DNA from: Actinomycetota bacterium
GTDB taxonomy: Bacteria > Actinomycetota > Coriobacteriia > Anaerosomatales > SLCP01
Length of the DNA stretch: 64,000 bases
Direction of reading: 5' to 3'
Assembly: GCA_037446725.1 (NCBI GenBank)
Contig: JBBIIC010000010.1
Coordinates: forward strand, 1,114 to 65,113
This document shows positions 1,975 through 30,465 of this stretch, piece by piece (the first letter of the stretch is position 1; the number at the start of each line of letters is the position of its first letter). Made by a program: the position numbers and the translations under genes. Under the pieces are notes generated by a model, which had not been told where the DNA came from, did not search any database, and saw only the letters and a program-made list of their open reading frames with translations.

Positions 1975-3324
1975 CTACAGGTCGACGCCGTTGGACTTCT
2001 CGGCGGCCTTCTTGGCCATCCGGTGCAAGAACTCCTGGTTCGTCTCGACCTGCCGCAACCCCTTGATGAGCATCTCGATGGCTCGCTCGGAGTTGTCCAC
2101 CCCGTGCAGGATGCGGCGCAGGCCCCACACGAACGGCGCCTCCATCGGGTCGAGGAGCAGCTCCTCCTTGCGCGTGCCGCTCGTGACCACGTCGATGGCC
2201 GGGAAGATGCGCCGATCGGCGAGGCGCCGGTCGAGGCGGAGCTCCATGTTGCCGGTGCCCTTGAACTCCTCGAAGATCACCTCGTCCATCTTCGAGCCGG
2301 TCTCGACGAGCGCGGTCGCGAGGATGGTGAGCGAGCCGCCGTGCTCGATGTTGCGCGCGGCGCCGAAGAAGCGCTTGGGCGGGTAGAGCGCCGTCGAGTC
2401 GACACCGCCGGACAGGATGCGCCCGCTCGCCGGGGTGGCGAGGTTGTAGGCGCGGGCGAGGCGGGTGATGGAGTCGAGCAGGATGACGACGTCGCGCCCG
2501 CCCTCCACCAGGCGCTTCGCGCGCTCCATCAGCAGCTCGGCGACGGCGATGTGGTTCTCACTTGGCATGTCGAACGTCGAGGACACGACCTCGCCCTTGA
2601 TCGAGCGCTCCATGTCCGTGACTTCCTCGGGCCGCTCGTCGACGAGCAGACACAGGAGGTGGACGTCGGGGTCGTTCGCGGCGATCGACGCGGCGATGTC
2701 CTTGAGGATGGTAGTCTTGCCGGCCTTGGGCGGCGAGACGATGAGCCCGCGCTGGCCCTTGCCGATGGGTGCGACGAGGTCGATGATGCGCGCGGTCAGC
2801 TCCTCCTTGCCCGTCTCGAGACGGAAGCGCTCATCAGGGTAGACCGGCGTGAGGTCGCGGAAGTGCTTGCGCACCCTGGCTTCCTCGGGCGGCTGTCCGT
2901 TGACCGTGTCGATGCGCTGCAGCGCGGGGTACTTCTCGTTGTCCTTGGGCGGGCGGACCTGCCCGCGAATCAGGTCGCCCCGGCGCAGATCGCCCCGGCG
3001 GATCTGCGACATCGAGCAGTAGACGTCGGCATCTCCCGGCAGGTACCCGCTCGTGCGGATGAAGCCGTAGCCCTCGGGCAGCACGTCGAGGATGCCGCTG
3101 ATCTCGACGAAGCCCTCGGCCTTGACCTTGGCCTCGAGGACCGCGTCGATGAGCTCGTCCTTCTTCTTCAGCGCCTTGACGTCGAGCGAGAGCTCGGCCG
3201 CGATCTCGCGCAGTTCGGTGACCTTCTTGGCTTCGAGGTCGGCGCGGGTGATCGAGGGCTGAGGCGGTTGCTGCGGCTGTCCTCCGCCGCCGCGGCGGCC
3301 TCTCTTGCGGGGTCGTGCACTCAT
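1975..3324 (-). CDS. rho: Transcription termination factor Rho
   Basis: Track ORF 1975..3396. Rho_N-like LEAKKVTELREIAAELSLDVKALKKKDELIDAVL, an RNA-binding domain, and Walker A PPKAGKTT. I prefer the ATG at 3324 (MSARPRKRG...) because GGGAGAAGG lies upstream and it forms an ATGA overlap with the tal stop. Confidence 0.95.
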   Translation of the reverse strand: MSARPRKRGRRGGGGQPQQPPQPSITRADLEAKKVTELREIAAELSLDVKALKKKDELIDAVLEAKVKAEGFVEISGILDVLPEGYGFIRTSGYLPGDADVYCSMSQIRRGDLRRGDLIRGQVRPPKDNEKYPALQRIDTVNGQPPEEARVRKHFRDLTPVYPDERFRLETGKEELTARIIDLVAPIGKGQRGLIVSPPKAGKTTILKDIAASIAANDPDVHLLCLLVDERPEEVTDMERSIKGEVVSSTFDMPSENHIAVAELLMERAKRLVEGGRDVVILLDSITRLARAYNLATPASGRILSGGVDSTALYPPKRFFGAARNIEHGGSLTILATALVETGSKMDEVIFEEFKGTGNMELRLDRRLADRRIFPAIDVVTSGTRKEELLLDPMEAPFVWGLRRILHGVDNSERAIEMLIKGLRQVETNQEFLHRMAKKAAEKSNGVDL

Positions 3325-3983
3325 GAGTTCTTTACCTTCTCCCAGTCGGCGAGGAACGCGTCCAGGCCGCGATCGGTCAGCGGGTGCTTCACGCACTGCT
3401 GCAAGATCTTGAACGGTACGGTGGCGATGTCGGCGCCGAGGAGCGCTGCGCCCACGACGTGGCCGGGGTGGCGCACGCTCGCCGCGATGATCTCGACGTC
3501 GTGGCCGAAGTCGTAGTTGTTGATGGCCGCGACGGTGTTGCCGAGGTGCTCGAGGCCGTCCTCGGAGATGTCGTCGAACCGGCCGATGAACGGCGAGATG
3601 TAGGCGGCTCCCGCGCGCGCCGCGAGCAGCGCCTGCGGGACCGTGAAGCAGAGCGTCATGTTGACCTTGACTCCGCGCTCGTGCAGCTCTCGGGTCGCCG
3701 CGAGGCCCTCAGGCATCGTCGGCACCTTGACGACGACGTGCTCGTGGAGCTCGGCAAGCTCGAGGCCTTCGGCGACGATCTCGTCACGGATAAGGCTCAC
3801 GGTCTCGGCCGAGACCGGACCGTTGACGATCTCGCAAATCCGCACGATGTGGTCGTGGAACTCGGAGAGCTTGCCGCCTTCCCGCGCGTAGAGCGAGGGG
3901 TTGGTGGTCACGCCTGCGAGCGCGCCCCAGTTTGCCGCCTCCTCGATCTCGGCGATGTTCGCCGTGTCCAGAAAGAACTTCAC
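3321..3983 (-). CDS. tal: Transaldolase / fructose-6-phosphate aldolase family (short type 3B)
   Basis: 220 aa. MKFFLDTANIAEIEEA...GVTTNPSL and VVKVP (Schiff-base Lys context). GTG start overlaps the upstream stop (GTGA). Confidence 0.9.
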   Translation of the reverse strand: MKFFLDTANIAEIEEAANWGALAGVTTNPSLYAREGGKLSEFHDHIVRICEIVNGPVSAETVSLIRDEIVAEGLELAELHEHVVVKVPTMPEGLAATRELHERGVKVNMTLCFTVPQALLAARAGAAYISPFIGRFDDISEDGLEHLGNTVAAINNYDFGHDVEIIAASVRHPGHVVGAALLGADIATVPFKILQQCVKHPLTDRGLDAFLADWEKVKNS

Positions 3984-4936
3984 GGTCGGCCTTCCTCCTT
4001 CTCGGTGACACCCTCGGGGGGTGGTTCGTCCTTAGCCATGAGCACCTCGTTGACTACGTGCTCGAGTGTGTCTGCCACCGTCCGGTCGAGCTGGTGGCTA
4101 TGGATGACGCGGATGCTGTGCTCGCGCGCCTGCTCCTCGATGTAGTGCCCGAGCATGCGTATGTTGTCGAAGTTCGCCCGGTACCGCTCGAACGGCCGCA
4201 GTCCGTCGGTCTGCACCTCGCGGATGTAGAAGTGGCTGCGGTGGGCTTCCTCGTCCTCGACCCCGATGAGGATCTGCACGACCCGGGCACCGGGGAACTC
4301 GGACGGCTCGATATAGCCGGGGACAAGGTGCACGCCTTCGATGACGAGGCTGACGCCCTCTTTCATGCTCCGCTCGATGAGCGCCTTGATCCCTGAAGTG
4401 ACGACAGCCGCCTGCTCACGGAACCCGACGATGACCGGGTTGGCTCCATGGGGTACCGGGACTCGCAGGCTGCGCCACGCTTCGAACGCGCTCGAATGCA
4501 GCGCGGGCATGAGTTCCTCGGTAAAGATACCACGCATGACCTCTCGGATGGAATCCGTCGATACAAAGCGCGTGATACCGAGGCGGTGCGCCACCTCGGC
4601 GGCGATGGTCGACTTGCCGACACCGGTGGTCCCGCCGATGAGCACGATGACCGGCGCATCGATCTTGCTGAGCGCCGCGAGGTGCTGGTAGCGCTCGGCG
4701 TACCCGGCGCCCGCCATGCGGTCGAGGTACTCGATGGCGAGCTCCTTGAGGCGCTCCATCGAGATGGCGAGCTCGTCCCGCTCGCGCAGGTCGTCCTGGA
4801 TGGCCTGGGCGACCTCGTAGGCCTTGCTCGGCGGCAAGCCGGTGGCGGTGAAGGACTGCGCGAGAAGGCCCTTGGAGAACGGCAGGCCATGCCGCTTGTC
4901 CGAGAGCGTGATGACCCTGCTCTGCTGCTGTGCCAC
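3980..4936 (-). CDS. 2-phosphoglycerate kinase (cDPG pathway)
   Basis: Track ORF 3980..5038. HGLPFSKGLLAQS N-terminal motif, P-loop GGTTGVGKSTIAAEVAHRLGI, and STDSIREVMR. I prefer the GTG at 4936 (VAQQQSRVITL), preceded by AGGAGG and 1 nt after the cpgS stop. Confidence 0.75.
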   Translation of the reverse strand: MAQQQSRVITLSDKRHGLPFSKGLLAQSFTATGLPPSKAYEVAQAIQDDLRERDELAISMERLKELAIEYLDRMAGAGYAERYQHLAALSKIDAPVIVLIGGTTGVGKSTIAAEVAHRLGITRFVSTDSIREVMRGIFTEELMPALHSSAFEAWRSLRVPVPHGANPVIVGFREQAAVVTSGIKALIERSMKEGVSLVIEGVHLVPGYIEPSEFPGARVVQILIGVEDEEAHRSHFYIREVQTDGLRPFERYRANFDNIRMLGHYIEEQAREHSIRVIHSHQLDRTVADTLEHVVNEVLMAKDEPPPEGVTEKEEGRP

Positions 4937-4937
4937 C

Positions 4938-6281
4938 TCAGGACCTCCTGTCCGAACCGCGCTGAAACGCGAGGGACGCGGCCCCGAGCAGGAGCCCGTC
5001 CAGGTCGCCGCCGTCGACGGAGACCGGGACGTTGTCACAGAGCACCGTCGACACGCCGGCCTCTTCGCCCGCGGTCGCTACCACGTCGATGGCGGCCGCC
5101 TTGAGCTCGGTGAGCAGCAGGTCGTACTCACCCGCGCACGACTGCATGTCGCGCCGCAGCAGCGCGCGGTTCGACAGGTGCGGGCTCGCGCCGGCGACCG
5201 TGCAGCCGAACTCGCGCTCGAGATGTACGGTGAGCTTGGGGAGGACCGCCTCGGGCGCGGTGGTGGCGAAGAAGACGCGCGCGCCCTCGACCGGCTCGAT
5301 CGGCGCGGGCCGGAACGTGGTGGCGACGACCGGCAGGTCGGGACGGATCTCCGCGACCGCCCGCGCCAGCTCTTCGATCTCCTCCGTGCTCGCGTTAGGC
5401 TCCTCGGCGGTCGCGAGCACGACGGCGTCGGCGCGCCCGAGCCTAAACGGCCCGAAGTAGTCGCGCACGTACGCAAGCCCGCGCCCTGCGCCCACGACGA
5501 GCACCGTCGCGTCCGCGTGCACCGGCGGTATCGCCGCGCCAGAGCCCTCGAGCACGAGGAGTTCCTTGCCGAGCGAGTCGGCGAGCCGGGCGCCTGCCGG
5601 CACGTTGCTGAAGTAGGTCTCGCCGGCCATCCCGCCGCCGCAGCGGCGACATCCGACGGTGGTCACACGGCTCATCACAGCGTCCTCGTAGTTGTCCGAG
5701 GAGGCGTGTTTGCCCTGCTTGGCGAGTTCGAGCAGGTCGGGAGTTGTGAGCGCGACCTCATCGCCCCGGATGAGCTCGGGCTCGGCGGGGCCGCCCCGGC
5801 CCATGGCGAGCACCACGATGTCGCGGCCGCGCGCCTTGAGTAGTCGGGCCGCGTACGCCGATATCGCCGTCTTGCCTACCCGCTTGCCGGTGCCGATGAG
5901 CCCGAGCGTGGGGGTCTCTGTCTTGTGACTTGTGGTCGGCGGCGAGAAGTGGAAGTCGGCGCCACGGTACTCCGCGCCAAGCGCGAGGGCCACGCCGGCG
6001 AGCCGGAAGCGGTCCGCCGAGGTCACCACCGGCTCGTCGGACAGATCGACCACGAGGTCAGGGCCGTACTCGCCGATCGCCTTCTCGAGTGCGGCCTCCG
6101 CGGTGCCCGCGGTCACGAGCGGCACGCCGTAGGTGTCCAGGCCGCGCTCCAGGTCGACCTTCTCGGTGCCGCCGAGGAACGCAGCGGCGAGGACCTCGTG
6201 GTGCTCGGCCAGGCCGTCGAGGGCGAAACGTACGACGGGGGGGTAGTGCTCGCCGTCGATGAGCGCGACGATCCGGCTCAT
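4938..6281 (-). CDS. cpgS: Cyclic 2,3-diphosphoglycerate synthetase-like protein
   Basis: 447 aa. N-terminal ALIDGEHYPPVV motif and internal P-loop LIGTGKRVGKTAISAY, as I recall for methanogen cPGS. Directly coupled to the 2-phosphoglycerate kinase gene. Confidence 0.7.
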   Translation of the reverse strand: MSRIVALIDGEHYPPVVRFALDGLAEHHEVLAAAFLGGTEKVDLERGLDTYGVPLVTAGTAEAALEKAIGEYGPDLVVDLSDEPVVTSADRFRLAGVALALGAEYRGADFHFSPPTTSHKTETPTLGLIGTGKRVGKTAISAYAARLLKARGRDIVVLAMGRGGPAEPELIRGDEVALTTPDLLELAKQGKHASSDNYEDAVMSRVTTVGCRRCGGGMAGETYFSNVPAGARLADSLGKELLVLEGSGAAIPPVHADATVLVVGAGRGLAYVRDYFGPFRLGRADAVVLATAEEPNASTEEIEELARAVAEIRPDLPVVATTFRPAPIEPVEGARVFFATTAPEAVLPKLTVHLEREFGCTVAGASPHLSNRALLRRDMQSCAGEYDLLLTELKAAAIDVVATAGEEAGVSTVLCDNVPVSVDGGDLDGLLLGAASLAFQRGSDRRS

Positions 6282-7075
6282 ACGGTGACCTCCCCGGACT
6301 CGGCGGCGCGCCAGCGGCAGTACTTCTGGTGGACGTCACGGAAGTCCGCGACGCACTCAGCGCCGGCGAACGGCTCCTTGAGCAGCACGCGTACGCGCTC
6401 GCGGTCGTAGACCTCGATGACGTTGTAGCAGGGGCGCACGCGGCCGCGCAGGCGGTGCGAACACGCGGTGCCGGCGTTCACGATGAGAACGTCTTCGAGC
6501 CGCCAGACATTGGGCACGTGCTTGTGGCCGCAAAGCACAAGGTCTGTGCCGCAGTTCGATAGCACGCGCAGCAGGTCGCCGGCGTCGTAGACGATGTTAC
6601 GCTCGCGGCCCGTGCCCGGCACCGGCACGAGGTGGTGGTGCATGGCTATTACCTTGAACTCGTCGGGCTCGCCGAAGCGCTCCTCGATCCAGCGGTAACG
6701 CTCGCGGCCCACACGCCCGCTGTCGAGGTCTGGCTCGGACGAGTCAAGACCGAGCAGCCGGATACCCTCGGTGCGCACCTCGCGGCTGCGCGCCCCGAAC
6801 AGCTCGGTGAAGTGCTCGTCGCCGACGTTGCGCGAGTCGTGGTTGCCCATCAGCACGAGACGGTTCGGGCACTCGATGCGGTCGAGCAGCCGCTGGGCCT
6901 GCTTGAACTCCTGCCGAAACCCCATATCCGTCAGATCGCCGGTGACCACGACCACGTCCGGTCCCAGTTCGTTGAGCTCGTCAACCACGCGGGTGGCGAG
7001 GCTCGGTATGTGGTAACGCGAGCCGCAGTGCAGGTCCGAGATGTGCGCTATGACGAACGGCGTGCTCTCGCTCAC
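6278..7075 (-). CDS. Calcineurin-like metallophosphoesterase
   Basis: 265 aa. SDLHCG, VVVTGDLTD, GNHD, MHHH and GHKH metal-ligand motifs. GTG start with GGAGG 7 nt upstream. 4-nt overlap with cpgS. Confidence 0.85.
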   Translation of the reverse strand: MSESTPFVIAHISDLHCGSRYHIPSLATRVVDELNELGPDVVVVTGDLTDMGFRQEFKQAQRLLDRIECPNRLVLMGNHDSRNVGDEHFTELFGARSREVRTEGIRLLGLDSSEPDLDSGRVGRERYRWIEERFGEPDEFKVIAMHHHLVPVPGTGRERNIVYDAGDLLRVLSNCGTDLVLCGHKHVPNVWRLEDVLIVNAGTACSHRLRGRVRPCYNVIEVYDRERVRVLLKEPFAGAECVADFRDVHQKYCRWRAAESGEVTV

Positions 7076-7093
7076 GGTAGGGCCTCCCGGCTC

Positions 7094-8086
7094 CTAGTGC
7101 GGCAGGGTCTTGCGTACGGCGTCGGCGTCGGGCGCGAAGCTGCCGAGGCGCTCCAGGCGCGCTCCAAGGCCGATGAGGCTGCGGAGGAGCGCGCCGTAGT
7201 CCGACTCGGTGTAGGTCACCACGTGTGGCTCGCCCTCGATGCCACCGAGCTCGGCGGCACGGTCGAGCGCATCGTTGTAGGTCCCGATCGAGTCGATCAG
7301 CCCCATGTCGAGCGCGACAGTGCCCGGCCAGATCCAGCCGTTGGCCATCTCCTCGACCTTCGCCTCGGGCATCTGCCGCCCCTCGGCGACGATGCGGATG
7401 AACTCGCGGTAGGCTACGTCGATGTACTCCTCGAAGAGCGCGGTCTCGGTGGCCGTGAGGCTACGGTACGGGCTGCCGGCGTCCTTGTACTCTCCTGCTG
7501 TGAGCACCTGGAACTCGATCCCGAGGGTGTCGAGCAGCCCCTCGACGTTGGGTATCTGGGCGATGACGCCGATGCTGCCGACCGAGGAGGTCGGGGTCGC
7601 GATGATCTCGTCACACTGCGAGGAGACCATGTATGCGCCCGAGGCACACACGTCACCGATACTCACGACAACCGGCTTGGTCACGCGCGCGATCTCCATC
7701 GCGATCTCCTGCGAGGCCGCGACCGTGCCGCCGGGCGAGTCCACACGGATGAGGATCGCCCGGACCGTGGGGTCGGCCTCGGCCTGTTCGAGCTGGTCGA
7801 CGAAGTACTCCGGCGTGACGATGCCGTTGTAGATGCTACCCGTGCCGGCGATGACACCGTCCAGGTGGATGAGCGCGACGGCGTCCCCGCCCGTCCAACT
7901 CGGCGTGTCGGTGCGCATGAACGCCACGTAGGCCATAACCGAGCAGGCGCAGGCGGACAACAACAGGACCGCCACGGCGATGAAGAACCAACGCCAGCCG
8001 CTCCCGCGCGTGCGCCGGTCCTGCTCGACGGGGGGCGCCGGTGGTGAGGGTGCTCCGTAGGTGGGCGGGACGCCCTGGTCTTCCAT
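7094..8086 (-). CDS. sppA: Signal peptide peptidase SppA (36K type)
   Basis: 330 aa. N-terminal TM helix, IRVDSPGGTVAASQEI, and GDVCASGAY (ClpP/crotonase-fold serine peptidase). GGAGG lies 5 nt upstream of the ATG. Confidence 0.85.
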   Translation of the reverse strand: MEDQGVPPTYGAPSPPAPPVEQDRRTRGSGWRWFFIAVAVLLLSACACSVMAYVAFMRTDTPSWTGGDAVALIHLDGVIAGTGSIYNGIVTPEYFVDQLEQAEADPTVRAILIRVDSPGGTVAASQEIAMEIARVTKPVVVSIGDVCASGAYMVSSQCDEIIATPTSSVGSIGVIAQIPNVEGLLDTLGIEFQVLTAGEYKDAGSPYRSLTATETALFEEYIDVAYREFIRIVAEGRQMPEAKVEEMANGWIWPGTVALDMGLIDSIGTYNDALDRAAELGGIEGEPHVVTYTESDYGALLRSLIGLGARLERLGSFAPDADAVRKTLPH

Positions 8087-8188
8087 GGGAACCTCCGCAA
8101 GGGATACGGCACGTCACGGACGTGACGGCGGCAGGGGGTGCACCCTATATTCCCCGACCGGCGGCAGTCCGGTCAACACGGGCACAGC

Positions 8189-9109
8189 TCAGAGCAGCGT
8201 GGCGCCCGCACGCTCGATGCCGAGTGCGAGCGGGACGCGGCGTCCGGCGAGAGCGGCGACGCGCTCCCGCGCGCGCGATGCGACCTGCTCGGCCCGCGCT
8301 AACGCATCGGCGTCGTCGGCCCCGCTGACCAGACCGATGACCGTGGGCCCCGCCCCGGAGAGAACCGCGCCTGTCACCCCGGCGTCCACGAGCGCCTCGC
8401 GCACGTCGCCAAGGTCGACGACCGCCCGCGCGCGGTACGGTTCATGGATACGGTCGGAGAGCCCCGCCGCTATCGCTGCGGCGTCGCCGAGCGCGATCCC
8501 GGCGGCCAGCAACCCCGCCCGGCCGGCGCTGAACGCGGCATCCGCGTGCGGAACTGTGTCGGGAAGCAGGTTGCGCGAGGCCGTCGTCGCCAGAGGCGCG
8601 TCGGAGCCGACCACCACGGCCGCGAGCCCCGCGCCGGGCTCGACGCGCACGCACCGGGGCACGCCGTCAGACCAGCAGACCGTGAAGCCCCCGAAGAGCG
8701 CCGCGGCCGCATTGTCAGGATGTCCCTCGATCTCGCTGGCGAGTTCGAGCGCCGACTGCCGGTCCAGTCCCGCGCCCACGAGTGAGTCCGCAAGAAGTAT
8801 CCCGCCAACGGCAGCAGCCGCTGAGGAGCCGAGGCCCGCACCGGGCGGGATGCGGTTCTCGCAGCGCAGTCGGGCCGCCTGACCCGGCTGGCCTGCAGCG
8901 TCGAACACGCGCGCCATCGCCCGGGCGACACGGTTGGCGGGACCGGTGGACAACCGGCCCGCTCCCTCACCCGAGACCTCGACCGACCACTCGTCCGCCA
9001 GCTCGGCGGTGAAGCGGTTGTGCAGCGCGAGCGCAAGGCCGAAAGAGTCGAACCCCGATCCGAGGTTCGCGCTGGTCGCCGGTACCGAGACGCTGACCTG
9101 TGCGGGCAC
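8189..9109 (-). CDS. thrB: Homoserine kinase
   Basis: 306 aa. PATSANLGSGFDSFGLAL and GLGSSAAA GHMP-kinase motifs. GTG start 5 nt after the hom stop. Confidence 0.93.
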   Translation of the reverse strand: MPAQVSVSVPATSANLGSGFDSFGLALALHNRFTAELADEWSVEVSGEGAGRLSTGPANRVARAMARVFDAAGQPGQAARLRCENRIPPGAGLGSSAAAAVGGILLADSLVGAGLDRQSALELASEIEGHPDNAAAALFGGFTVCWSDGVPRCVRVEPGAGLAAVVVGSDAPLATTASRNLLPDTVPHADAAFSAGRAGLLAAGIALGDAAAIAAGLSDRIHEPYRARAVVDLGDVREALVDAGVTGAVLSGAGPTVIGLVSGADDADALARAEQVASRARERVAALAGRRVPLALGIERAGATLL

Positions 9110-9114
9110 GGCAG

Positions 9115-10401
9115 CTAGAGGTCCTCGACACGCAGGACGGTCTCGACGGACTCCAGGACGTCGAGCGCCTCGATCTCGGCGAGTGCGGACCGCACCGCCC
9201 GCTCAGTGGCGCGGTGGGTCACGTAGACGATCTCGGCTACCGGCTCGTCGGCCGACTTCTGGATGACGCTTGCGAGCGACACGCTGTGATCGCCGAAGAC
9301 CGAAGCGACCCGGCCGAGCACGCCCGGTTGGTCGGCGACGCGCAACCGCAGGTAGTACGGGGTCTCGAGGTCGCCGATGTCGCGAATGGGCAGCTGATCG
9401 TTGCACGTGCACCCCACGAGCCCGAGGCAGCCCCGGCTGATGTGGCGCGCCACCTCGATGACGTCGCCGACGACCGCGCTCGCCGCGGGAAGCGAACCAG
9501 CGCCCTCCCCGAAGAACATCGTCTCGCCGACAGCGTCGCCGATGACGTAGATCGCGTTGTAGACGCCGTTGACACTGGCGAGTGGATGCGACGCGCGGAT
9601 CATCGTCGGGTGCACGCGGATGTCGATGCCGCCCGGCGTCCGGCGCGCGATGGCGAGCAGTTTGACCGCATACCCCATCTCGGCCGCATACGCGATGTCG
9701 GAGGCGGACAGGGTGCGGATGCCCTCGGCGGGCACCTGGTCCATGACCACCCGGCTGTTGAACGCGATCGAGGCGAGGATGGCGATCTTGGCGGCCGCGT
9801 CGAGCCCGTCGACGTCGGCGGTCGGGTCGGCCTCCGCGAAGCCCTTTGCCTGCGCCTCGGCCAGCGCCTCGTCATAGCCCAGACCGTCCTCGGTCATGCG
9901 GGTGAGCATGTAGTTGGTCGTCCCGTTGACGATGCCCATCACGCTCGTGACCTCGTTGGAGACCAGGCAGTGCTTGAGCGGACTGATGATGGGGATGCCC
10001 CCACCGACGCTCGCCTCGAACGCGATGTCCACGCCGTGTGCCGCCGCAGTGTCCATGACCTCCTGGCCGTGCGCGGCCATGAGGGCCTTGTTCGCGGTGA
10101 CCACGCTCTTGCCGGCCTTCAGGGCCGAGAGCACTACGTCGCGGGCCACGCCGGTGCCGCCGATGAGCTCGATCACGACGTCGAGCGCGGGGTCGTTGAC
10201 GAGCTCGAACGCGTCGGTGGTGAACGATCCCTCGGGTAGGCCGAGTTCGGCGGCCCGTCCGGCGTCGCGGTCGGCGAACCGGGCGAGTGCGATGTCCACC
10301 CCGGCTCTCGTGCGGAAGTCCGCAGCATGCCGGCTGAAGATGTCTACGACGCCCGAGCCGACCGTTCCGAGGCCGACGAGGCCGACCTTCACGGTTTGCA
10401 T
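9115..10401 (-). CDS. hom: Homoserine dehydrogenase with C-terminal ACT domain
   Basis: Track ORF 9115..10443. VGLVGLGTVGSG Rossmann motif, and an ACT-like YYLRLRVADQPGVLGRVASVFG. I prefer the ATG at 10401 (MQTVKVG), preceded by GGAGGAATGTC. Confidence 0.93.
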   Translation of the reverse strand: MQTVKVGLVGLGTVGSGVVDIFSRHAADFRTRAGVDIALARFADRDAGRAAELGLPEGSFTTDAFELVNDPALDVVIELIGGTGVARDVVLSALKAGKSVVTANKALMAAHGQEVMDTAAAHGVDIAFEASVGGGIPIISPLKHCLVSNEVTSVMGIVNGTTNYMLTRMTEDGLGYDEALAEAQAKGFAEADPTADVDGLDAAAKIAILASIAFNSRVVMDQVPAEGIRTLSASDIAYAAEMGYAVKLLAIARRTPGGIDIRVHPTMIRASHPLASVNGVYNAIYVIGDAVGETMFFGEGAGSLPAASAVVGDVIEVARHISRGCLGLVGCTCNDQLPIRDIGDLETPYYLRLRVADQPGVLGRVASVFGDHSVSLASVIQKSADEPVAEIVYVTHRATERAVRSALAEIEALDVLESVETVLRVEDL

Positions 10402-10428
10402 GACATTCCTCCGCGCCTCTCGCAGGTC

Positions 10429-10513
10429 TGACCGGTCAGCCACCGGTCAGAGCGTATTGTACCCGAGTCCCGGCCCCCGACCGGCCCGCGCGGTGGTCAG
10501 AGAACGGTCAGAG
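10429..10513. repeat. Two pairs of 11-bp-phased direct repeats (ACCGGTCAG x2; GGTCAGAG x2) in the hom / island divergent intergenic region
   Basis: ACCGGTCAG at 10431-10439 and 10442-10450. GGTCAGAG at 10445-10452, 10495-10502 and 10506-10513. The palindrome TGACCGGTCA at 10429-10438 overlaps the first copy. Confidence 0.6.
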
Positions 10514-10572
10514 CCGGTTTGCGTCGCTGTGGATACTGGTGCACGAACGTTTGTTCGATGAGAGGGGTCGGG

Positions 10573-11220
10573 ATGGAACTGAAACGGAGCCTCGTGAGGA
10601 GCACGGCGGCAGTCGTGGCGATCGCGCTCGGCGCCACGCTGCCCGCTGCCGCCTTCGCCGCGTACAAGATGGTGCCGACGACGTGCACGAGCAGCTGCGC
10701 CAAACAGCAGACCACCTACTGGTGTGGCCCGGCGAGCACGCACTTCGTACTGCACTCGCAGGGAAGGAGCGTGACGCAGTCGACGCTCGCGAAGGAACTC
10801 GGGACCACGACCAGTGGTACGGCCATCGAGAGGATTCCCGCGATCCTCAACAAGTACAAGCGGGTCACCATCAAGTACGTGCACGTTCCTCGCACTTACA
10901 TAACCGGGATCGCACTCGTACGCAGCATCATCACTTACGCGGTCGACAGGAACTCGTGCGCCATCCCCTGCGTCAACCCGTACCCATACACCAACAGCGC
11001 GGGATACTACTCCCCCGGTTTGCCCACCTACAGTGGCAGCAAGGCGGGCGGACACTACGTCGTCATGCGCGGCTACGACATCTCGTCCACGAGCGACTAC
11101 GTGTACTACTTCGATCCGCACTACGATGCGACCCACTACGGCACCCACCGGGCGACCGTGAGCGCGATGGCCCGTTCGATCCTGGTGAAGAACTATGGCA
11201 GCCAGGGCGTCGTGTACTGA
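10573..11220 (+). CDS. Secreted papain-fold cysteine peptidase, C39-like (Peptidase_C39_2-type)
   Basis: Track ORF 10519..11220. I prefer the ATG at 10573 (MELKRSLVRSTAAVVAIALGATLPAAAFA signal peptide). YWCGPAS (Cys nucleophile context) and GGHYVVMRGYD...YYFDP (His context). Sampled lines are 55-60% GC, against about 80% in the next gene. Confidence 0.65.
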   Translation: MELKRSLVRSTAAVVAIALGATLPAAAFAAYKMVPTTCTSSCAKQQTTYWCGPASTHFVLHSQGRSVTQSTLAKELGTTTSGTAIERIPAILNKYKRVTIKYVHVPRTYITGIALVRSIITYAVDRNSCAIPCVNPYPYTNSAGYYSPGLPTYSGSKAGGHYVVMRGYDISSTSDYVYYFDPHYDATHYGTHRATVSAMARSILVKNYGSQGVVY

Positions 11221-30389: not shown

Positions 30390-30465
30390 TGGAGCCGACG
30401 AGGGGACTCGAACCCCTGACCTACGCATTACGAGTGCGTTGCTCTACCAGCTGAGCTACGTCGGC
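30390..30465 (-). tRNA. tRNA-Thr (anticodon CGT), CCA encoded
   Basis: Minus strand: GCCGACG TA GCTC AGCTGGTA GAGC A ACGCA CT-CGT-AA TGCGT AGGTC AGGGG TTCGAGT CCCCT CGTCGGC T CCA. This is a complete cloverleaf read by eye. Confidence 0.92.

Follow-up and report, generated by a model that had tools for sequence, protein, structure and literature searches.

The locus described here raises the question of whether a bacterium carries the means to make, and perhaps also to break down, cyclic 2,3-diphosphoglycerate (cDPG), a compound that the literature we searched still describes as exclusive to methanogens. No paper on bacterial cDPG or on a bacterial cDPG enzyme was found in that literature, in keeping with a preliminary description of the locus that had called the bacterial homologues biochemically unstudied. 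Within the window (the whole stretch of 64,000 nucleotides analysed), genes for a cDPG synthetase homologue (cPGS), a 2-phosphoglycerate kinase family protein (2PGK) and a calcineurin-like metallophosphoesterase (MPE) lie side by side, and we assign a probability of roughly 0.6 to the reading that they form a three-gene bacterial module for cDPG synthesis and, probably, turnover. The gene names are already in databases, since NCBI and IMG annotate these genes as 2,3-diphosphoglycerate synthetase.

All three open reading frames of the preliminary description, and all the motifs that it quoted (IDGEHYP, GKRVGKT, LPFSKG and GGTTGVGKST), were found in the window sequence. They lie on the minus strand, where MPE (6278..7075, 265 aa), cPGS (4938..6281, 447 aa) and 2PGK (3980..4936, 318 aa) form a chain joined by a 4-nt overlap and then a 1-nt gap. 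At the first junction ATGA (6281-6278) is common to both genes; at the second, the cPGS stop TGA (4940-4938) is followed by one base and then by the 2PGK start GTG at 4936 (TGAgGTG), with AGGAGG 8 nt upstream of that start. The mechanical ORF of 2PGK reaches 5038, but in this longer frame homology is absent before about residue 38, making the start at 4936 the sensible choice. The chain continues, as had been claimed, into an fsa/talC-type transaldolase or fructose-6-phosphate aldolase gene (fsa; 3321..3983, 220 aa; TIGR00875 fsa_talC_mipB, 254.5 bits; cut-off 245.95) and finally into the gene for transcription termination factor Rho (1975..3324, 449 aa; TIGR00767 rho, 644.7 bits; cut-off 509), both on the minus strand, through two further 4-nt overlaps (GTGA, 3983-3980, and ATGA, 3324-3321). 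Upstream on the same strand, the stop TAG (7096-7094) of the signal peptide peptidase gene sppA (7094..8086, 330 aa; TIGR00706 SppA_dom, 210.9 bits) is separated from the MPE start GTG at 7075 by an 18-nt spacer containing GGGAGG. The head of this co-directional gene string (8189..10443) is formed by thrB (8189-9109; TIGR00191 thrB, 201 bits) and hom (9115-10443; NF004976 homoserine dehydrogenase, 550.8 bits), and a Peptidase_C39_2-like ORF (10519-11220, plus strand) diverges from hom. Profile searches thus confirm the identities of all five flanking genes. The overlapping stop and start codons, together with Shine-Dalgarno-like sites before each start, suggest translation of MPE, cPGS, 2PGK, fsa and rho from a single mRNA.

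A similar architecture was found in two bacterial lineages: lineage A, comprising 64 actinobacterial genome loci from Coriobacteriia-labelled, HGW/UBA Actinobacteria and Ca. Aquicultor MAGs, and lineage B, comprising 84 Gaiellaceae/Thermoleophilia soil contigs with a GC of about 73% (80 metagenome loci plus L085 and L089-L091). The block hom-thrB-(sppA)-MPE-cPGS-2PGK-fsa-rho is syntenic in the 64 lineage-A loci, down to a cPGS identity of 46%, with an MPE-to-cPGS gap of -4 or -1 in most of them and an fsa-to-rho overlap of -4 in nearly all. In lineage B, glpX and/or an FeS_assembly_P gene comes after the triad, and the genes upstream are unrelated to those of lineage A. MPE lies directly upstream of cPGS in 55/61 lineage-A and 66/67 lineage-B loci, and 2PGK directly downstream in 59/59 and 68/68, respectively. 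The order and the -4/-1 overlaps recur across both lineages (most of the 64 loci of A, plus the 84 contigs of B), and the three-gene arrangement is far beyond chance; given its adjacency in both, MPE is a genuine member of the bacterial module. The coupling of the phosphoesterase to cPGS and 2PGK proposed in the preliminary description therefore holds, and a survey of its co-occurrence indicates that MPE tracks cPGS rather than sppA. The latter, present in 34/56 lineage-A loci, is a variable upstream neighbour outside the conserved triad: membrane proteins take its place in L033-L038, and in lineage B it was absent from the region upstream of MPE in the four loci inspected for it, L085 and L089-L091. 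MPE is also better conserved than cPGS on average (+4.2 identity points; higher in 47/56 loci). MPE is missing from its usual position in six lineage-A loci that retain cPGS and 2PGK. Neither MPE nor 2PGK occurs within the flanks of cPGS in 16/16 archaeal loci; gene neighbourhoods in the known cDPG producers thus lend no support to a role of MPE.

The 447-aa protein proved to be, as proposed, a close full-length relative of a characterised cDPG synthetase. In phmmer, residues 3-439 match residues 5-452 of the crystallised Methanothermus fervidus cDPGS (PDB 8ORU/8ORK; E 1.7e-133), the two proteins are 47% identical over their full length, no other P-loop family scored better, and PF27272 (CpgS_N) is recorded for the protein. 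The ligand residues of the M. fervidus enzyme (PMC10690619) that could be placed in the alignment are all retained, with E45, K46, K145, R146, K149, T150, D208, E305, T353, E404 and K406 corresponding to the invariant E40, K41, K133, R134, K137, T138, D196, E293, T341, E392 and K394 of cPGS. For the kinase, whose P-loop domain carries GGTTGVGKST, the earlier call stands at the level of the family, as the protein matches NCBIfam PRK04220 over model positions 4-297 of 306 (E 1.8e-91; 306.7 bits, below the equivalog cut-off of 343) and PRK12337 (325 bits, under its cut-off of 603). The partner kinase of lineage B also matches PRK04220. A weak, sub-threshold resemblance of the N-terminal region to an ATP-cone (Pfam ATP-cone, E 3.4e-4) matches the ATP-cone-like N-terminal region of archaeal 2PGK. 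The family also holds mevalonate-3-phosphate 5-kinase and plant LPA1-type proteins, and membership alone is thus no guarantee of a 2-phosphoglycerate substrate.

In the pathway that we propose, the kinase would convert 2-phosphoglycerate and ATP to 2,3-diphosphoglycerate (2,3-DPG), as its family and strict co-location suggest, and cPGS would then close the cyclic pyrophosphate through attack by the 3-phosphate and release of Pi. In a third step MPE may hydrolyse a phosphorylated glycerate of the pathway, a role to which its conserved, translationally coupled neighbourhood and its enzyme chemistry point. Its most likely reaction would be opening of the cDPG pyrophosphate ring to give 2,3-DPG, the alternative being dephosphorylation of 2,3-DPG; either would return carbon and phosphate to glycolysis/gluconeogenesis.

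That the cPGS-like protein has diverged and the bacterium makes no cDPG, the protein acting perhaps as an ArcE-like arginine synthetase or as a ligase on another phosphorylated acid, seems to us very unlikely. ArcE (Thermococcus kodakarensis TK2200), from a distantly related ATP-dependent P-loop family widespread in bacteria, does catalyse an entirely different reaction (arginine + ADP + Pi <-> citrulline + NH3 + ATP), but it is reported to resemble cDPGS only weakly, and cDPGS served as the outgroup (PMC11032458). The window cPGS, at 47% full-length identity to an assayed enzyme, clusters with cDPGS proteins, keeps the 2,3-DPG contacts (E45, K145, R146) and Mg ligands (T150, D208), and invariably comes with a 2PGK-family kinase that could supply 2,3-DPG, rather than with arcB/arcC. 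There is no report of cDPG from any bacterium, and many carriers come from non-hot samples (soil, peat and groundwater, judged by sample type), so that a thermoprotectant role is not obvious; however, loci labelled Methanobacterium or Methanobrevibacter (bog, fen and rumen-type MAG names) carry the gene too. It is hardly credible that the cassette was recently acquired by horizontal transfer from a methanogenic archaeon and placed between thrB and rho. Only archaeal members of the pathway are characterised. Canonically, actinobacteria have the order hom-thrC-thrB-rho, against which extra genes between thrB and rho look like an insertion. Yet this insertion, with its gene order, recurs in 64 lineage-A loci, Ca. 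Aquicultor included, and GC shows no anomaly (0.65-0.72 inside the cassette versus 0.65-0.74 outside). Moreover, archaea lack linkage of these genes, while bacteria have them in a triad whose third member, MPE, does not adjoin archaeal cPGS. A quick midpoint-rooted NJ tree, weak owing to limited sampling and no outgroup, places Methanobacteriales cPGS among divergent actinobacterial branches and not as the donor of a shallow bacterial group. Bacterial cPGS lineages are as divergent from one another (44-55% identity) as from the archaeal enzymes (39-51%), and "archaeal-type", the term used in the preliminary description, is hence a historical label rather than a demonstrated origin. That description was accurate in its observations and, in its interpretation, on enzyme identities and the coupling of MPE; its suggestion of acquisition, if taken to mean a recent insertion, is not supported. 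In our reading the module is ancient in Actinomycetota and has been passed down vertically, with no recent import into the window genome.

The assignment of MPE, the first gene of the triad, is more tentative. The protein is a binuclear metallophosphoesterase of the GpdQ/Rv0805 (class III phosphodiesterase) type (Pfam Metallophos, 66 bits; cut-off 21.5) in which the motifs DxH, GD, GNHD, HHH and GHxH are invariant and every metal ligand is kept; judged by eye, its N-terminus shows neither a signal peptide nor a membrane segment, and the protein looks soluble. GpdQ (E 4.7e-13) and Rv0805 (E 4.4e-12) are the nearest solved structures by sequence and, at 22-23% identity, the top Foldseek matches of its AF2 model (pLDDT 84). 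Both are phosphodiesterases, not pyrophosphatases, which counts against action of MPE on cDPG, as do subfamily motifs in homologues away from cPGS and the six lineage-A loci without MPE. Those motifs, HHHLxPxPxTGRER (HHHLxPxPGTGRER in the window) and EPDxDxGxxGR (EPDLDxGxxGR), are common to homologues of 40-45% identity in Thermoleophilum album, a WOR-3 bacterium, Methanobrevibacter, Altiarchaeales and Methanofastidiosa, none of which adjoins cPGS; the T. album gene sits beside pstSCAB-phoU and that of Methanofastidiosa beside PhoU_div. IMG names the orthologues CpdA/Icc, and NCBIfam gives partial matches to SpdA and CpdA. All of this would suit a general class-III cyclic-nucleotide/phosphodiester phosphodiesterase that merely shares the operon while the other two enzymes make cDPG, perhaps a CpdA/Icc/GpdQ-like hydrolase of cAMP, 2',3'-cNMP or glycerophosphodiesters serving signalling or phosphate scavenging. 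We regard this as unlikely, if worth serious consideration, as MPE is only 22-23% identical to any characterised phosphodiesterase and adjoins cPGS in 121/128 loci with enough upstream sequence. Moreover, the 4-nt overlap persists between lineages whose cPGS are about 48% identical and whose flanks are unrelated, the junction remaining constant while the upstream neighbour varies; a signalling enzyme would not be expected to show stoichiometric coupling of this kind. Among MPE-fold enzymes, LpxH, ADPRibase-Mn and ApaH cleave P1,P2-disubstituted pyrophosphates. We know of no gene identified for a cDPG breakdown enzyme, including the cDPG hydrolase activity of Methanothermobacter thermautotrophicus. 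Because it accompanies both cDPG-making enzymes in two distant bacterial lineages, MPE is a testable candidate for such an enzyme, and its substrate would be cDPG or 2,3-DPG.

Comparison with known systems places the module in context. Like M. fervidus cDPGS, described in 2023 (PMC10690619), the window cPGS has a Walker A motif GTGKRxGKT, the placed 2,3-DPG-, Mg- and adenine-contacting residues, and an N-terminal DGEHYxPVV / GGTEK domain, the source of E45 for the partner subunit; unlike it, the host is a high-GC bacterium without known thermophily, and the gene is translationally coupled to 2PGK and MPE, whereas cPGS is solitary in the 16 archaeal loci examined. The kinase shares a near full-length profile match and the P-loop kinase core with M. 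fervidus 2-phosphoglycerate kinase (COG2074; PRK04220), differing in its score under the equivalog cut-off. MPE has the fold, the seven metal ligands and a size similar to those of Enterobacter aerogenes glycerophosphodiesterase GpdQ and the M. tuberculosis class III cyclic-nucleotide phosphodiesterase Rv0805, but differs in its subfamily motifs and its operon coupling to cPGS. By analogy only, E. coli ppk-ppx (polyphosphate kinase / exopolyphosphatase) likewise co-transcribes the genes that build and hydrolyse a phosphoanhydride store, although neither its protein families nor its compound are related to those of the module. The closest Methanobacteriales homologue of MPE that we found (44% identity) is unlinked to cPGS. 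M. thermautotrophicus does possess cDPG-hydrolysing activity (PMC1224877). According to that source, which cites Sastry et al. 1992 and van Alebeek et al. 1994, one such activity is membrane-bound, unlike the apparently soluble MPE. These hydrolases convert cDPG to 2,3-DPG, the very reaction that we propose for MPE, and give the pathway the logic of a phosphate and carbon store.

The eight co-directional genes that span positions 1975-10443 on the minus strand of the window include what we predict, with a probability of about 0.6, to be a module for synthesis of cyclic 2,3-diphosphoglycerate (cDPG) with a functionally linked phosphoesterase. The string runs from hom (9115-10443), thrB (8189-9109), and sppA (7094-8086) through a metallophosphoesterase gene (MPE; 6278-7075, 265 aa), a gene for a cDPG synthetase homologue (cPGS; 4938-6281, 447 aa), and a 2-phosphoglycerate kinase-like gene (2PGK; 3980-4936, 318 aa), and on into an fsa/talC-type aldolase gene (3321-3983) and rho (1975-3324). 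Products of hom, thrB, sppA, fsa, and rho score above curated cut-offs; MPE is assigned from a match to Pfam Metallophos together with metal-ligand motifs, cPGS from homology to the Methanothermus fervidus cDPG synthetase, and 2PGK from a match to PRK04220 below its cut-off. In the proposed route, 2PGK would convert 2-phosphoglycerate to 2,3-DPG, which cPGS would then cyclise.

Reading the junctions directly from the sequence confirmed the coordinates, overlaps, and motifs of the preliminary description. The TAG stop of sppA is followed after 18 nt by the GTG start of MPE, ATGA is common to the MPE stop and the cPGS start, and the TGA of cPGS lies a single base ahead of the GTG of 2PGK. Further along, GTGA is common to 2PGK and fsa and ATGA to fsa and rho, and a GGAGG-like site precedes each start in the string. 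Because a divergent Peptidase_C39_2-like ORF (10519-11220, plus strand) starts at 10519, the string probably begins at hom, and the 75-nt gap between the two is likely the promoter region of the hom-to-rho string. A consensus scan found no promoter or terminator above background in the hom-rho interval, and an Rfam scan found no regulatory RNA in the 64-kb window, its sole match being a distant tRNA gene (30393-30465, minus strand); thus, no leader or riboswitch can be proposed. The ORFs upstream of hom (10.4-14.5 kb) have almost no family matches. At the other end of the string, Rho carries at its N-terminus (3250-3324) a short basic Gly/Gln/Pro-rich extension (MSARPRKRGRRGGGGQPQQPPQPS) ahead of its conserved domains, and its match to the Rho model begins at residue 27-28.

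Residues 3-439 of the window cPGS align with residues 5-452 of the 459 in the crystallised M. fervidus enzyme (8ORU/8ORK), at 47% identity (E 1.7e-133). The residues of cDPG synthetase that bind 2,3-DPG, Mg2+, and ADP have been named in the structure paper (PMC10690619), and their counterparts are invariant in our alignment of cPGS proteins. K137, T138, and D196, of which the first two lie in the Walker A motif GTGKRVGKT, correspond to K149, T150, and D208 of the M. fervidus enzyme; the 2,3-DPG contacts E45 (contributed by the partner subunit), K145, and R146 correspond to E40, K133, and R134; and the adenine and ribose contacts E305, T353, E404, and K406 correspond to E293, T341, E392, and K394. 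K41 of cPGS is likewise invariant among the counterparts of the named ligand residues, and the counterpart of P335 is ambiguous in the alignment, with its FRP motif conserved.

The Pfam and NCBIfam sets that we searched gave cPGS no match, which we regard as a gap in those sets rather than as evidence against the assignment, since the CpgS_N domain (PF27272) is recorded for this protein in its database entry. The preliminary description had allowed that the 447-aa protein might fit an unrelated P-loop family better, a concern that falls away because no other P-loop family scores for it in Pfam, NCBIfam, or solved-structure sequence searches. The nearest functionally different relative that we found is the arginine synthetase ArcE. 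An ArcE identity was rejected on the strength of the 47% identity to a characterised cDPG synthetase and of the neighbouring genes, which are 2PGK and MPE rather than those for OTC or carbamate kinase. By sequence, the window cPGS appears to fall clearly on the cDPG synthetase side of this divide, which we drew from the published description of ArcE-cDPG synthetase similarity. That similarity is described as low, and cDPG synthetase served as the outgroup for ArcE (PMC11032458).

For the 318-aa kinase, the two NCBIfam models for 2-phosphoglycerate kinase are the best families by a wide margin, and its core contains the P-loop GGTTGVGKST. PRK04220 aligns over positions 4-297 of 306 (E 1.8e-91) and scores 306.7 bits (cut-off 343), and PRK12337 scores 325.2 bits (cut-off 603). 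As both scores fall under the equivalog cut-offs, we file the protein as a family member whose 2PGK function is presumed. The family also includes mevalonate-3-phosphate 5-kinase, so that the assigned substrate rests on family membership and on an invariant pairing with cPGS, directly downstream of which the kinase gene lies in 59 of 59 loci of lineage A (Coriobacteriia-labelled, UBA/HGW Actinobacteria, and Ca. Aquicultor) and in 68 of 68 loci of lineage B (Gaiellaceae/Thermoleophilia soil contigs). A solved-structure search returned no structure for any 2PGK.

MPE scores 66 bits against Pfam Metallophos (cut-off 21.5) and displays the DxH, GD, GNH[DE], H, and GHxH motifs, with D14, H16, D47, N78, H79, H146-148, H184, and H186 invariant. 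It is a bona fide binuclear metallophosphoesterase with all metal ligands in place. Inspection of its N-terminus by eye shows no evident signal peptide. Its closest solved relatives, GpdQ and Rv0805, are only 22-23% identical, and MPE reaches the cut-off of no curated equivalog model in NCBIfam. Assignment as CpdA (PRK11148, 32.5 bits against 225) or SpdA (45.9 bits against 400) was rejected, as was the top NCBIfam match, a DS9/DS8 anti-phage phosphoesterase (66 bits against 420, covering residues 118-201 only). MPE therefore shares a fold class with Rv0805, GpdQ, CpdA, and Icc but lies outside these families.

The main result on MPE comes from comparing gene neighbourhoods. In 55 of 61 lineage-A loci, MPE directly precedes cPGS, in most cases with the 4-nt overlap seen in the window, and on average it shows higher conservation than cPGS; sppA lies upstream of MPE in 34 of 56. 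A second context, unrelated to the first, emerged from a 51%-identical MPE in lineage B (GC about 73%): there the order MPE-cPGS-2PGK is kept with 4-nt overlaps amid varying upstream genes, and glpX and/or an FeS-assembly-domain gene comes next. Across 80 metagenome loci, L085, and L089-L091 of this lineage, MPE is adjacent in 66 of the 67 loci with enough upstream sequence. MPE kept beside sppA without cPGS, which would have counted against the coupling in the preliminary description, was found in no case: MPE tracks cPGS, and its cPGS-less remote homologues sit in other contexts altogether. MPE thus belongs to the bacterial module as a conserved gene coupled in translation to its neighbours. 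Neither MPE nor 2PGK was found near cPGS in 16 archaeal loci (213 kb in all).

The surroundings of the triad differ between groups. What stands upstream of MPE varies, and in one lineage-A sub-clade (L033-L038; e.g., L034 4934-7103) sppA is replaced between thrB and MPE by two membrane proteins, a 468-aa polytopic, O-antigen ligase-like protein and another of 256 aa. On the downstream side, lineage-B loci (L085 887-5235; L090 5027-8332; L091 7195-12399; L092-L171) carry the class II fructose-1,6-bisphosphatase gene glpX and/or a small FeS_assembly_P-domain gene, with glpX within 2.5 kb in 34 of 50 loci. With glpX in lineage B and fsa/transaldolase in the window, the module stands beside sugar-phosphate or gluconeogenic enzymes in both lineages. 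In one lineage-B locus (L089 2620-6600) the triad is spread over several frames, with cPGS and 2PGK each fragmented, likely owing to indel errors of a long-read assembly rather than to real pseudogenes.

The association of MPE with cPGS is not absolute. Six lineage-A loci (L009, L012, L014, L016, L058, and L064) have no MPE at this position, where it was either lost or never present; in these, sppA abuts or overlaps cPGS and cPGS-2PGK-fsa-rho is intact. Homologues of 40-45% identity with the same subfamily motifs occur away from cPGS in Thermoleophilum album, a WOR-3 bacterium, Methanobrevibacter, Altiarchaeales, and Methanofastidiosa. In T. album (FNWJ01000001.1; L087 6964-10558), a 43%-identical homologue shares an overlap with a CpsB/CapC-type phosphoesterase gene, and next comes a 570-aa protein that has no family match. 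This group is directly adjacent to pstSCAB-phoU and a response regulator, and no cPGS lies within the 8-kb flanks on either side. Tandem-duplicated two-domain forms of about 500 aa (proteins P0247 and P0251) occur in Ca. Methanofastidiosa-type archaea, in one case (L172 8001-9500) near PhoU_div and a PEP-utilising enzyme.

When GTDB species were scanned, each represented by one genome, a cPGS relative was detected in at least 568 of them, and the best 80 comprise 64 Actinomycetota and 16 Methanobacteriaceae loci. Among these best 80, the Actinomycetota loci are labelled Coriobacteriia, Actinobacteria UBA/HGW, and Ca. Aquicultor, and a few of the 64 are labelled Eubacteriales or Clostridiales yet show the same synteny. 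The order hom-thrB-(sppA)-MPE-cPGS-2PGK-fsa-rho is kept in actinobacterial loci down to 46-50% cPGS identity, and the GC of the cassette (0.65-0.72) matches its flanks. Identity among bacterial cPGS lineages (44-55%) is similar to that between bacterial and archaeal proteins (39-51%), and a quick midpoint-rooted neighbour-joining tree, weak evidence in itself, shows no shallow clade of bacterial proteins nested among those of an archaeal donor. Together, these observations argue that the cassette is ancient in these lineages and was not imported recently. The preliminary description is supported in its pathway assignment and gene coupling, and unsupported in its suggestion of acquisition, taken as a recent event.

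These bacterial proteins are already labelled (cyclic) 2,3-diphosphoglycerate synthetase by NCBI and IMG, so the presence of a cPGS gene in bacteria is no discovery. A second solved structure that carries the label cDPG synthetase, PDB entry 9SXB (436 aa), shares only 49% identity with the M. fervidus enzyme and 44% with the window cPGS. It was considered as a bacterial structure and rejected; its sequence is low-GC and archaeal-looking, and thus does not demonstrate prior bacterial work. cDPG has been stated to be exclusive to hyperthermophilic methanogens (PMC10690619, PMC12136491). The searchable literature yielded no paper linking cDPG synthetase to Coriobacteriia, OPB41, Gaiellales, or any bacterium, and the pathway goes unmentioned in the OPB41 isolate paper and its supplement. 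As an organised observation, the bacterial triad, its breadth in Actinomycetota not labelled as thermophiles, and the candidate degradative gene look new.

We tentatively propose that cDPG extends beyond (hyper)thermophilic methanogens and is made by large, mostly uncultured Actinomycetota lineages, with the co-translated MPE as its hydrolase. The producers would be Coriobacteriia-related subsurface groups, Ca. Aquicultor, and soil Gaiellaceae/Thermoleophilia, in which cDPG could serve as a phosphate or energy store or as a stress solute, its synthesis and mobilisation forming one operon-encoded cycle. Active operons of this kind would bring a high-energy cyclic pyrophosphate solute into the physiology of Actinomycetota that are abundant in soil and the subsurface, and would bear on how phosphorus is stored and stress tolerated there. 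They would also supply bacterial enzymes, possibly easier to express than hyperthermophilic archaeal ones, for current efforts to produce cDPG biotechnologically.

MPE, being conserved, offers a concrete gene candidate for cDPG breakdown. A cDPG hydrolase activity has been known biochemically since the 1990s; to our knowledge, no gene has been assigned to it and no gene family defined. The enzyme of M. thermautotrophicus is reported to be membrane-bound, with K+ and Pi as inhibitors (PMC1224877). From gene neighbourhood, we infer that MPE hydrolyses cDPG, our preferred reading, or 2,3-DPG; the joint claim that MPE is specifically the cDPG hydrolase and that these bacteria do accumulate cDPG is possible but somewhat doubtful. 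LpxH, ADPRibase-Mn, and ApaH are enzymes of the MPE fold that cleave disubstituted pyrophosphates, precedents that make hydrolysis of cDPG by MPE chemically plausible, and the ppk-ppx operon provides a precedent for the pairing of synthesis and hydrolysis genes.
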